From the NCBI RefSeq assembly GCF_006345805.1, contig NC_043019.1:23001360-23065359 (forward strand): 64,000 nt of DNA. Reading direction: 5' to 3'. Shown one piece after another: positions 5,676-54,950 of the stretch (the stretch's first letter is position 1; each line of letters begins with the position of its first letter). The notes under the pieces were generated by a model that was not told where the DNA came from, ran no database searches, and saw only the letters and a program-made list of their open reading frames with translations. Both the position numbers and the translations under genes were made by a program. This DNA is from Octopus sinensis. Lineage: Eukaryota.

Positions 5676-5890
5676 GGACGCCATGATATATCGTTAGCTC
5701 CTACACGCATTTTTTTCTCTCTTTGTTTCTCTCCTTGTTTTTTTCTGAGTATCTTTCTGTCAAAGAGCGTAGGCTCGAAACATAAAAGACTTTTTCTATT
5801 TCTATTCCTGAGAGAGCCATACTAATACATTTTTTGTTTGTTCTCCACCTGCCTCCATCTTTTGTTTATTTTCGTAAACCTTCCCATTAT
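5676..5890 (+). mobile_element. Repeat family E (pLTR/retrozyme-like) with a degenerate hammerhead motif at 5752-5789
   Basis: Closely similar to 53350-53540; tcttt-ctgtcaa-a-gagc gtag gctc-gaaa-c ata-aaaga. Confidence 0.7.
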
Positions 5891-6789
5891 ATATATATTA
5901 TATATATATATATATATATATATATATATATATATATATCCTGTTGTGTGTGTGTGTGTGTTGTCTCCCAATCCCCCACTGGACAACTGATGTTGGTGTG
6001 TTTATATACCCATAACTTAGGGTTCAGCAAAAAAGAATGATAGAATAAGTGTCAGGCTTTACAAAAAGCGAATGCAATAATAAGTACCGGGGTAAATTTG
6101 TGGGACTAAAAATCCTTCAAGACGGTGCTCCAGCATGGCCGTAGCCCAATGACTAAAATGAAGTAAAACGCAAAAAAAGTCTCTTAATATTTTCTTTTAT
6201 ATTCTATTAATAATAATAAAATGGAAAAATATGGAAATCAAATGACATGAAAGAGGCAGACTGGAATCAAAGAACATTTCTGCAGACATTCATCCAAAAT
6301 AACTTTAAGGGAAAAGTAAAATAATAACAGCAATAATGCTGACAAGTCCACCCTGGCCCCATACCCGAAATATGTGTCCATGTATGCATGTGTTACATAT
6401 ATATATAATATTTTATATATATATTATATAATATACATATTTATACATATATATATATATATATATTTACATATATATATGTACATATTATATATACATA
6501 TATATATATATATACATATGTATATGTATACATATATGGTATATATATGTATGTATGTAGTATGTATATGTGTATATATATATATATGTATATGAGTATA
6601 TATACATATATATATATATATATATATATGTATATATATATGCACACACATCTATACACACACACACACACATATATATATATATATAAGTCTGATAAGT
6701 GCCGATGCACAAAACTCATGGTCCTCGAGTGATTCTGTTACTTCTGCTAAATATGGGGGACTTTGCTGTGCCATTGCTGTTATTATTGG

Positions 6790-6970
6790 TGTGGCACCAC
6801 TTTGAAGAATTTTTAGTTGAATGTATCAACCTCAGGACTTTTTTTTCTTTGAAACCTGGTACTTATTCTATCGTTCTCTTTTGCTAAGTTACGGGGATGT
6901 AAACAAACCAACATGGGTTGTCAAGCAGTAGTTGGGTGTGGCAAGACAATGCAGACACAAAGACACAGTA
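6790..6970 (-). mobile_element. SINE family A, 3' half, diverged
   Basis: ggtacttattctatcg...gctaagttacggggatgtaaacaaacc. Confidence 0.65.
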
Positions 6971-7222
6971 TAGCAGTGCCTCAATCACAACTATTATGTA
7001 GATGTGTGTGTGTGTGGTGTGTGTGTGTGTGTGTAAATCAGTGGTCCTCCAGCATGGCCACAACTCAGGAGCAGGTAAGGGAGGAAGACACAATGAGGAT
7101 GATGGTGGTGATAATGATGATGATGAGGAGGAGGATGTTTTTGTTGTTGTTGTTGTTAAGCAACAAGATGGGTAAGAGTGATTAGGTGATGGTCTAGGGC
7201 TTAGGGGCAGGAGACTCCAGAC

Positions 7223-7347
7223 CTTGGAAAAAAAAAATTTAGTCGTCTTGTAGTAGTCGAGGGCTCTTCGTTGATGCCCAACACCACTGGGAGGTGGCCC
7301 TCGAAGTCGCTGGAAATGGAGATCTCCAGGTCCAAATTCTTGAACGG
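7223..7347 (-). CDS. Candidate internal exon of an unidentified host gene (PFKNLDLEISISSDFEGHLPVVLGINEE...)
   Basis: Non-repetitive CpG-containing island with strongly G/C-ending codons, between caacAG and AG|GT; possible 1-nt frameshift into ALDYYKTTKFFFSK. Protein not recognised. Confidence 0.4.
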
Positions 7348-9002
7348 CTGTTGGTGGTGGTGGTGGTGACGGCGGTGGTGGTGGTGGTGACGGCGGTGGT
7401 GGTGGTGGCGGTGGTGGCAGCAGCGGATGTACAGTAGATGTAATAATGATAGCATTGGTGTTACTGCTACAAATGATGGTTATGGCTGCTGTGATGATAA
7501 TGGTGATGCTGCTATTGCTACCGCTGATGATGATGACGGCAATGACGATGACGACGACGATGACAACGCCGACGATAATGATGATGATTATGATGTTGAG
7601 ATGATGTGGCAATGATAATGATGATGATGATGATGATGATGCCAGCGCTGACGCTCAGGATGAATAACAAATAACAATACTGCAAATACAGTATCTATTC
7701 GCATTTAATACATTACACATTCATAAATTTCTAAACCAAGTTCCTTTGTTAAAAAAAGAATATTAAAAAAAGAGGGGAAGCAAAGAAGAACCAGCCACCA
7801 CAGAAAATTGGAAGAACACCACAGCCAACCCTCTCCCCCACACCTATCCTTCTCTCTGCACGCCATAAAAAAGTAAAAAGCCTGAAGACAAGAGGAATAT
7901 TGGCAAGAAAGACAGGAGAAAAAATACTCATATGCATATATATCAATTGATAATATATATTATATATATATATATATATATATATATGCACATATATATT
8001 GTGTATATATATTATATATATAATATATATAGCTATAAATATAGATATATACATATGCATAGATATATACATATATATATATATATATATATATAACATA
8101 TATACATATATATATATACATATATATATACATATATATACACATATATATACATATATATATACACATATATATATATATATATATAATATATATCTAT
8201 ATATATATATATATATATATATATAATATACACACTCACATTTATACATTTTATATTTCATATTTATATATTTTATATTTATGTATCTAACACACACACC
8301 AAATATAGACACACACACACTATAGAATATATATATATATATGTATATGCAGACTTATATTGATATATCTAAGTCTATGGGTATATGTGATGTCTGAGGG
8401 GCATGTAGGGGACAGAAATACCTAAATAGGGAATCAATGAAAGAGAGATTTCACTTTATAGAGAAGAAATGGAGTAAAATATAGAAAATAAAGTGTTAAT
8501 TTTCAGCTCATATTTATTTCTGGCTTATGTATGCAAGCACATGGGTAACATTGTATCTATGTAAGAAGATATATAAGTACGCATGCACACATGCGCATGT
8601 GCATACATATATCATTATACACACACACAACACACAATATTATAAATATATATATATGTACGCATGTGTGTGTTGTAAGTATATATATGTATAAATGTGT
8701 CCGTGTGTATGTATATGCATATACCTAGACCACCTGAGCATTATATTATAGTTATCTGTGGAGTACTCGACCACTTTGCATGATGATTCTATTGAAAGTT
8801 TTGAGTTAAGTCTCAGCTCAAATCACCTCCAAGTCAAAAATCAACTTAAATATATATATATATATATATATATGCGTATTTGTGTATGTGCATATGAGTG
8901 TGTGTATGCACATATATCTATGCGTATATATATATGTATGTTTCTCTGTGTGTGTGTGTGTTTGTGTCTGTGTTTGTCAGCCACTACTGCATGACAAATA
9001 GC

Positions 9003-9163
9003 ACCCACTACACTCTCAGACTGGTTGGCGTTAGGAAGGGTATCCAGCTGTAGAAACTCTGCCAGATCAAGATTGGAGCCTGGTGCAGCTGTCTGGTTCG
9101 CCAGCTCTCAGTCAATATCGTCCAACCCATGCTAGCCTGGAAGGCGGACGTTAAACGATGATG
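9003..9163 (+). mobile_element. RTE LINE 3' end (family D)
   Basis: cacccactacactctc...ggttggcgttaggaagggtatccagctgtagaaac...ggacgttaaac(gat)n. Confidence 0.85.
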
Positions 9164-9182
9164 ATATATATATATATATATA

Positions 9183-53279: not shown

Positions 53280-53540
53280 AGGTCATCTTGACCTTGTTAT
53301 CTCCCCTACTTTCCCCTTCCCATCTGACCATTCTGTCCGAGTCAGACACCATAATAGATCATTAGCTACTACACACATTTTTTTCTCTCCTTGTTTTTTC
53401 TGTGTACCTTTCTGTAGAAGAGCGTAGGCTCGAAACGTAAAAGACTTTTTCTATTCCTGAGCGCTATACTAATACATTTGTTTGTTTGTACACCACCTGC
53501 CTTCGTCTTTTGTTTATTTTCGTAAACTTTCCCTTTATAT
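53280..53540 (+). mobile_element. Repeat family E
   Basis: Matches 5676-5890; flanked by (TA)n. Confidence 0.75.
53408..53443 (+). ncRNA. Putative minimal hammerhead variant
   Basis: CUUU-CUGUAGA-A-GAGC(guag)GCUC-GAAA-CGUA-AAAG; core has A6U. Confidence 0.5.
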
Positions 53541-53544
53541 ATAT

Positions 53545-53730
53545 ACGATAGGCTTCTTTGAGCTTCTGTCTACTACCCCTTGTCAGTAGAAGACTTCCGT
53601 GTTCCACTCGCAAGGCCTTGGTCAGCCTGAGGCTATAGCAGAAGACACTTGCCCTAGATGTCATGCAGTGGGACTGAGCCCAGAACCATGTGGTTGGGAA
53701 GCAAGCTTCTTACCACACAGCCACTCCTGC
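53545..53730 (-). mobile_element. SINE family A, 5' half
   Basis: Reverse complement of the head. Confidence 0.8.
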
Positions 53731-54359
53731 ACACATATATGTGTGTGTGTGTGTGTGTGTGTGTGTATACATATATATATACAAATATATATATATATAT
53801 ATATATATATATATTCATACACACATACATATGTGTGTGTGTGTCTGTGTGTATCTGTGTATGTATATGTATTATAGACACAGACACACACATACATGTA
53901 TTATAAATAAGACAGGCTGGCTGTTATTGAAATTATTATCATTTCTGAAATAGGCATCGCATGATTAAAGTATTGACCAATTCTCATATTGCAACTGTTA
54001 TGAAAAATATTAATTCTTCCAGTTCTGTTGCCAGCAAAGATTTAAGAGATTTTGGTAATGAGGAATTCTTAGAATTTGTGGAAGTTTCATATTGATCCGG
54101 ATAAATAGTTTCATCAAATTAAAATTTATTTATACACCTGTGTGTGTGTGTGTGTGTGTGCACGTGTATGTGTGTTTCTATATATGTATGTATATATATA
54201 TATATACATATACACACACACACGACACACACATACACACACATATGCATACATATATATATACATACCCTTACCAAAATTGGAATCCCAATGAAGAACA
54301 ATTATTAAAACATCAATGTATGGTATATTATCTATATATATATATATATATCTTTTATT

Positions 54360-54795
54360 ATTTACTTGTTTCAGCCATATGACTGTCTGTGACCATGCTG
54401 GGGCACCACCTTGAAGGGTTTTAGTCAAACAAATGCACCTTAAGCCTTTTTTTTAAAGCCTAGAACTTATTTTATCCGTCTCTTTTGCCAAACTCTAAGT
54501 TACCAGGATGTAAACACACCATCACCAGTTGTCAAGTGGTGGTGGGGGACAAAGTAGACACAAAGACACACACGCATATGTGTGTGTGTGTGTGTGTATA
54601 TATATATATACACATACACACACGCATATATACATACACGGCAGGCTTTTTCAGATTCTATCTACCAAAACCACTTACAAGTCTTTGTTTGTCTCAGGGT
54701 TGTAGTAGAAGTCACTTGACCAAGGTGTCACACAGTGGGATTGAACCCAAAACCATGTGGTTGGGAAGCAAGCTTCTTACCACACAGCCATGCTT
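54360..54795 (-). mobile_element. SINE family A, full length, diverged
   Basis: Tail, microsatellite and head in reverse complement. Confidence 0.8.
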
Positions 54796-54804
54796 GATAT
54801 TGAT

Positions 54805-54950
54805 ATTCCTCTGTCTCCTGTTTCTAACGAAGAGCTTTGCTCAAAACGTAAAACCACTTTTCTTTCCTTCCCTGAGCATCTGCTAATGCTTTACACGTAC
54901 CATGTCCTCATGTTGTTGGTTTTTTCTTGTGTTTTTCCTCATGTTTCTTG
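54805..54950 (+). mobile_element. Repeat family E subfamily 2 with a degenerate hammerhead at 54820-54854
   Basis: gttt-ctaacga-a-gagc ttt gctc-aaaa-cgta-aaac; cctgagcatctgctaatgc. Confidence 0.6.

Follow-up and report, generated by a model that had tools for sequence, protein, structure and literature searches.

Minimal hammerhead motifs with altered cores in Penelope-like elements of Octopus sinensis

Hammerhead motifs at the locus

The 64,000-nucleotide window of Octopus sinensis DNA analysed here (contig NC_043019.1, positions 23,001,360 to 23,065,359, assembly GCF_006345805.1) contains four dispersed copies of a motif with the layout of a minimal hammerhead ribozyme (HHR), assigned by sequence to the 3' ends of truncated Penelope-like elements (PLEs). 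Inspection of the sequence finds all four where a preliminary description of this DNA had placed them, and the motifs and the insertions that carry them lie on the forward strand. Copy 1 (5753-5788) reads CUUU CUGUCAA A GAGC-guag-GCUC GAA ACAU A AAAG and belongs to an insertion at 5677-5887 which matches copy 3 and a long element, L211, in blastn; the insertion is the 5'-truncated remainder, that is the 3' pseudo-long terminal repeat (pLTR) end, of PLE family 1 and has (TA)n tracts on either side. Its core has the U6 that is found family-wide together with C at N7, and it carries two private changes, G8A (5762) and a G-to-A substitution in the palindrome (5782). Copy 3 (53408-53443), CUUU CUGUAGA A GAGC-guag-GCUC GAA ACGU A AAAG, sits in a further 5'-truncated family-1 insertion (53277-53536) with short (TA)n tracts on either side; it shows the lineage-typical U6, N7=A and H17=A, is otherwise complete, and is predicted to be cut after 53439. 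Copy 2 (24767-24801), GUUU CCGACGA A GAGC-ucc-ACUC GAA ACGU U AAAC, lies in a 5'-truncated insertion of PLE family 2 (24693-24887, C4 lineage) that ends in (TA)n. Here C4 is lineage-wide, a stem II G-to-A at 24786 is private, and the predicted cut falls after 24797. Copy 4 (54820-54854), GUUU CUAACGA A GAGC-uuu-GCUC AAA ACGU A AAAC, is the decayed motif of an old insertion (54802-54949) of a UUU-loop family, a relative of family 2 whose family core is canonical; its private changes are G5A (54826) and G12A (54843).

G8 and G12 are the catalytic guanosines of the hammerhead (PMC6155905), and because the former is lost from copy 1 and the latter from copy 4, both copies are predicted to be dead on the basis of their sequence and the family states. 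The earlier remark that every copy departs from the core stands in so far as there are deviations, but these are of two kinds, family-wide states (U6, C4) and private decay (copies 1 and 4), which the remark had run together. The window copies are ordinary truncated insertions, and solo genomic copies have no helix III partner in any case.

A minimal-hammerhead descriptor allowing at most one deviation recovered copies 2 and 3 from the window and nothing from any of 10 dinucleotide shuffles; with at most two deviations it recovered three motifs, adding copy 4, against 0-2 per shuffle, and copy 1, which has three deviations, was missed. The best 150 of 351 Rfam matches in the window included no hammerhead family, only miRNA-type families driven by microsatellites, and microsatellites also swamped general repeat finding. 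Across the 2.72 Gb of genome searched, the exact family pattern was found 17,007 times for family 1, 11,551 times for family 2 and 843 times for the UUU-loop family, and the reversed control pattern of each of the three gave 0 matches; these counts are lower bounds, the exact pattern being matched by 41 of 71 family-1 copies that were picked by their flank (see below). Forty 10-kb stretches at arbitrary positions held three family-1 matches and one family-2 match, and matches with a canonical core amount to 12,307 over all families.

Relations between the families

Copies 1 and 3 share 80% identity across about 210 nucleotides in blastn, and the mutual match of copies 2 and 4 is confined to the surroundings of the motif. 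Blastn finds no similarity between the pLTRs of families 1 and 2, and their open reading frames (ORFs) are about 69% identical. What had been described as two subfamilies of one family are therefore three related but distinct families. Nor does stem II covary as its loop changes, as had been proposed, since the sequence GAGC/GCUC is common to all three; what had been read as a 'cucca' loop in copy 2 reflects a G-to-A change of CpG type, the stem having 4 bp and the loop being UCC, and this change is found in 7 of 100 listed family-2 matches. The covariation proposed for stem I amounts to a single pair that has changed in a compensatory manner between families 1 and 2, and within the flank-picked sample of family 1 no compensatory stem change was seen. 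A further family, referred to as the third family, has different paired stems.

The parent element

Among the fetched copies the 3' end is fixed and the 5' ends are staggered, reaching from 73 to more than 1,400 nucleotides into an autonomous element that encodes a reverse transcriptase (RT) and an endonuclease (EN). Most of 30 flank-picked loci extend just 70-290 nucleotides into the element and a few reach the ORF. In the longer copies of families 1 and 2, RT and GIY-YIG endonuclease frames were found upstream of the motif, which is what the preliminary description had recommended looking for, and together with loci of pLTR-ORF-pLTR arrangement they bear out its proposal of minimal hammerheads that belong to Penelope-like pLTRs. 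The RT matches the Pfam family RVT_1 (E=1.3e-7); the GIY-YIG match is weak (E=4e-4) and below the Pfam cut-off. The suspected preference for (TA)n is also borne out, a (TA)4 or longer tract being present at the 3' end of 77 of 90 family-1 and 27 of 30 family-2 copies compared to 559 of 9,960 background windows.

Twenty long stretches, picked mainly for long frames, reveal the organisation of the element. Stop-free frames of 806-1,009 amino acids carrying RT motifs are present in nine of the 20, and in seven two motifs lie 3.8-4.5 kb apart within pLTRs that are 98-100% identical. The order is a pLTR with its HHR, a leader of about 0.6 kb, a frame encoding RT, a CX4CxxC linker and GIY-YIG, and a second pLTR with its HHR, giving a repeat of about 4.5 kb. 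L211 is an example, with pLTR motifs at 3226 and 7734 and, following the leader, a frame at 4166-7195 which contains DKG, GRPI, MGT, RYIDD and YIGQT. The long family-2 loci L175 and L176 have broken frames, and L176 retains the pLTR-ORF-pLTR arrangement. The linker, C-SRPR-C-RT-C followed by a spacer of about 24 residues, compares by eye with Neptune and not with the Nematis rows of Fig. S2 in Craig et al. 2021 (PMC8557442). The fixed 3' ends, the RT and EN frame and the Neptune-like linker together identify the window copies, as far as sequence goes, as 5'-truncated insertions of Neptune-like PLEs whose 3' pLTRs hold the four motifs. Families 1 and 2 spread recently; a first look gave 16,312 candidates for the family-1 endonuclease, and 62 of 150 scored matches were identical across 126 amino acids.

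Inverted pairs of pLTRs, separated by anything from a few dozen to some hundreds of bases, were also observed (L037 1501-1927; L390/L391), inverted 5'-truncated pairs being the usual arrangement of PLEs. Family-1 and family-2 ends often lie no more than a few hundred bases apart (L146, L156, L034, L050, L368), for which common (TA)n targeting is the likely cause. Contigs from eight runs whose RNA status was only guessed were not used as evidence, and they cannot reveal ends, strand or level; they cover the pLTR, some of them bridging it into the leader, and contain neither a GT-AG splice joint, although some PLEs retain a spliceosomal intron in the pLTR, nor a letter other than U at position 6.

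Core positions in family 1

Family 1 has fixed an A6U substitution. The canonical A6 is present in just 203 of the 17,007 genome-wide matches, and position 6 in the first 100 of these listed is U in 98, C in 2 and A in none. So that the motif would not choose its own sample, copies were also picked by other means. A word in the 3' flank (15,625 matches) was one such means: 90 of its 100 listed matches were fetched, 19 that end within or 3' of the motif were dropped, and U6 is found in all 70 of the 71 retained copies that have a letter at position 6. Selection of 30 loci by endonuclease identity gave CUGUUGA in 28, the remaining two having indels there. The suggestion in the preliminary description that CUGU may be a lineage-specific variant is thereby upheld. 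Ten A6 copies do not appear to form an ancestral clade, their rows being scattered among U6 copies in a tree built from the flanks.

N7 and H17 are the two free positions of the hammerhead. They are also the only polymorphic motif columns in the flank-picked sample (N7: U39, G12, A11, C6; H17: A38, U30), and minor letters exceed 10% in none of the 28 other non-CpG motif columns compared to 37 of 125 flank columns. Between family-1 lineages, none of the other 34 motif columns differ compared to 21 of 104 flank columns (Fisher p=0.002), a contrast to be read with the caveats that the lineage groups were set by N7 and H17, both of which hence vary by construction, and that alignment noise inflates the variation in flank columns close to poly-T tracts. 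The flank-only tree of 146 family-1 copies largely recovers the lineages set by N7 and H17 and is a ladder along which N7 passes through G, A, C and U and H17 through U, A and U with U6 throughout; only 15 of its 140 inner branches have good support, and its direction was taken from terminal branch lengths. U6 has thus been retained across four states of N7 and two of H17, and H17 is G in one of 155 copies. The pattern of free and fixed positions in family 1 agrees with the rules of the hammerhead.

Two other roles for the family-1 motif were considered. A splice acceptor, made up of the pyrimidine tract and UGUAG, was rejected because that AG is found only in the N7=A lineage. Selection as a plain hairpin is disfavoured, N7 having gone through four states of which only U pairs in that hairpin.

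Family 2 and its canonical relatives

Family 2 acquired a U4C change independently of the change in family 1. The CCGA of copy 2, which the preliminary description had not singled out, is also lineage-wide. Position 4 is C in 61 and U in 39 of 100 listed matches. In a flank tree of 92 copies, from which 19 near-identical query-like rows had been removed out of 111, the U4 lineages and the UUU-loop family are basal and C4 forms one derived clade (99/93) which includes the youngest family-2 copies. Decay of a CpG as the source of U4 is rejected for most copies because they form basal lineages; a few U4 copies within the C4 clade fit such decay. Between family-2 lineages, three of 34 motif columns differ compared to 15 of 109 flank columns, so that these data do not show constraint in family 2.

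The canonical core is kept by older families of the genome. CUGA is present in 88 of 100 listed UUU-family matches and in 80 of 85 listed rows of the third family, which has a long stem II, and the consensus C3 U4 G5 A6 N7 G8 A9 is found only in the UUU family, the older family-2 lineages and the third family. The remaining features of a minimal PLE hammerhead are in place in the motifs of the window families: helix I, the bulged base, helix II with G10.1-C11.1, GAAA, the palindromic half of helix III and UH. The third family (about 7,000 matches; L232-L260, for example L234, L238 and L244) has a different flank, often with (AAT)n or (AAC)n on the 5' side.

A possible mechanism and its alternatives

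The two youngest families have thus each fixed a core change, A6U or U4C, and since the rest of the motif has been kept despite it, the motif likely still has a job. The favoured interpretation, with a probability of roughly 0.6, is that it is still a slow, protein-assisted self-cleaving RNA. A read-through transcript of the tandem element would carry two motifs, which would pair via their ACGU palindromes and so make helix III, and a cut after H17 would trim the RNA to unit length; for PLE hammerheads of the minimal type, dimer pairing and cutting at this place have already been put forward (PMC4209133). No cut would be expected in a monomer or a solo genomic copy, which lacks helix III and in which an inactive hairpin competes. 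The change in the U-turn would lower the cleavage rate, and binding by the element's own protein would restore enough of it, as is reported for a PLE hammerhead with a canonical core in Anolis, which cuts only with the protein of its element (PMC11167929). Natural hammerheads with U4C and A6C are slow yet active (PMC3088659, PMC7151607). The stronger proposal, that tens of thousands of copies hold working natural hammerheads, one kind with A6U and another with U4C, in which a U-turn crippled in free RNA is rescued by the protein of the Penelope element or by the context of the dimer, is tentative and would be somewhat less probable than its negation. If true, two spreading lineages would have detuned their ribozymes independently, and slower or protein-gated cutting would be favoured.

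Several observations weigh against continued cleavage, in addition to the caveats on the family-1 column contrast and the weak branch support given above. The predicted lowest-energy folds of monomers and of paired copies are hairpins or duplexes instead of the hammerhead, and their z-scores are close to 0, which implies that help is needed. None of nine ATG-started frames is unbroken into the RT and no fully intact copy was seen, and the youngest C4 lineage combines H17=C with a stem I mismatch, which looks like erosion. Single and double mutants in the CUGA region of a type III hammerhead all had low activity save for a C3-G8 swap (PMC9901934), and A6C strongly lowered the rate in Mg2+ (PMC7151607). 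In Anolis, insertion in vitro persisted when the hammerhead was dead, and the cut site was not the end of any read (PMC11167929). Naiad PLEs lack a canonical hammerhead and yet thrive.

The low activity of U-turn mutants and the dispensability of cleavage for insertion in vitro would be expected if cutting had been lost from the U6 and C4 motifs and a hammerhead-shaped fold or sequence were kept for binding by the RT or by a factor of the host. In family 1, neither stem II nor loop II varies at all and compensatory change is lacking, as expected of a protein site, and two independent changes in the U-turn suggest relaxed catalysis. This alternative is nevertheless judged unlikely, as G8 and G12, which are catalytic, have been retained along with the palindrome and a base other than G at position 17, and the free positions are precisely those that are catalytically free. 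It is more improbable still that the hammerhead is dispensable and decaying, with U6 and C4 having hitchhiked with master copies and the invariance due to chance or to a signal in the DNA itself, for instance a promoter or a splice site. The Naiads, the mismatched stem I of the youngest lineage of family 2 and the unclear column contrast in family 2 would all fit such decay, but the contrast in family 1 does not, and a DNA-level signal does not explain why N7 and H17 alone are free. The preliminary description had favoured solo pLTRs or non-autonomous ribozyme retroelements; the copies would then be products of recombination, or a retrozyme family moving as a circular RNA of about 200 nucleotides. 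Most copies do span only 70-290 nucleotides with little beyond the motif and its flanks, and retrozymes derive from pLTRs (bioRxiv 2026.07.22.740005); however, the staggered 5' ends run into the ORF of a protein-coding PLE, 19 of the 90 fetched flank-picked copies end inside or 3' of the motif, and the fetched loci contain no short tandem units although retrozymes are defined as tandem repeats (bioRxiv 2026.07.22.740005), all of which makes this origin very improbable.

Relation to known hammerheads

The class of element and the type of motif are already known, and the U6 and C4 cores, which are classed as a variant because they lack the consensus core, would work like the minimal hammerhead of PLEs. 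Work by Lunse and colleagues from 2017 reportedly covers many PLE-linked hammerhead variants and may already include such cores. The minimal HHRs in the pLTRs of metazoan PLEs (Cervera and De la Pena 2014, PMC4209133) likewise have a short helix I, an extra base after A9, G10.1-C11.1, palindromic 15.2/16.2 positions without loop III and a U-rich 5' flank, and occur as thousands of solo 5'-truncated copies alongside a few pLTR-ORF-pLTR elements. They differ in that the 56 representative motifs of Fig. S3 are all CUGA or UUGA, a core demanded by the descriptor used there, whereas the commonest families here are CUGU and CCGA. Among EN+ PLEs, the Neptune clade as described by Craig et al. 2021 (PMC8557442) shares the C-terminal GIY-YIG, the DKG motif, the CX2-5CxxC linker spacing and the (TA)n targets, and placement in or near it is suggested here by likeness of motifs and spacing; for Octopus, the supplement rows examined from that paper hold Naiads only.

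The natural U4C of a viroid and A6C of phage Bcep176 (PMC3088659, PMC7151607) affect the same two U-turn positions with the other core positions intact. These are rare single cases in ribozymes stabilised by tertiary contacts, whereas the octopus families, each with more than 10,000 copies, have the changes fixed, with U and not C at position 6. The PAc element of Anolis (Poseidon; Frangieh et al. 2024, PMC11167929) also has a minimal hammerhead in the pLTR of an autonomous PLE but is of another clade; the part of that report consulted gives no core variant, and the motif overlaps the start codon there and lies about 0.75 kb upstream of it here. Animal non-LTR retrozymes (PMC7229834; bioRxiv 2026.07.22.740005) share the type I hammerhead and a PLE ancestry but are non-coding tandem repeats, unlike the dispersed truncations of a coding element described here. 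A literature search found no natural A6U hammerhead, its scope leaving aside Lunse et al. 2017, a 2012 hammerhead review and parts of the PMC4209133 supplement. No description of octopus Penelope hammerheads was found in the literature either, the single related work concerning Naiads, and the words 'ribozyme' and 'hammerhead' are absent from the main text of a 2026 Octopus repeat annotation (PMC13282606).

The role of PLE hammerheads is in question, since their cleavage in vitro is poor, the protein of the element is required in one case and an entire clade has dispensed with them. The octopus genome offers a natural experiment in which spreading U6 and C4 lineages exist beside older canonical relatives, with a motif of 36 nucleotides. 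If the variants are active, the rules for the hammerhead core would be extended, and searches that require CUGANGA would overlook those motifs that are commonest in a genome of this kind; if they are inactive but still constrained, the fold would be kept for a non-catalytic job.

Other features of the window

Beyond what the preliminary description contained, a fifth and a sixth hammerhead belong to an insertion of another PLE family at 37149-38355 (forward strand), which consists of inverted pLTRs, 98% complementary, and a GIY-YIG fragment (37480-38133). The motifs, at 38250-38275 on the forward and 37229-37254 on the reverse strand, have an ACCGGU palindrome, a 2-bp stem II and a U3-A8 core, which is a known variant of the hammerhead core; unusual features are the shortness of stem II and the U-U with which helix I begins at its base. 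This family has 402 exact matches in the genome, and UUGAAAA is present in all eight copies fetched.

Two short words near the motif are kept across families 1, 2 and UUU within flanks that otherwise diverge, CC(U/C)GAGCG at 12-25 nucleotides on the 3' side (53454-53462 and 24819-24828 in the window) and GUU(A/G)G on the 5' side. They possibly form a distal helix or an alternative pairing with stem II. An off-switch in which the downstream word pairs with stem II is compatible with the sequences but without covariation in the UUU family, and a distal helix of GUURG with CYAAU, for which a single inter-family change and the predicted fold of copy 2 give a hint, is not established. A SINE-like repeat (resembling a short interspersed nuclear element) of about 200 bp, unrelated to the hammerheads, is present in at least eight copies in the window, among them 800-996, 22968-23164, 24972-25168 and 60145-60341.

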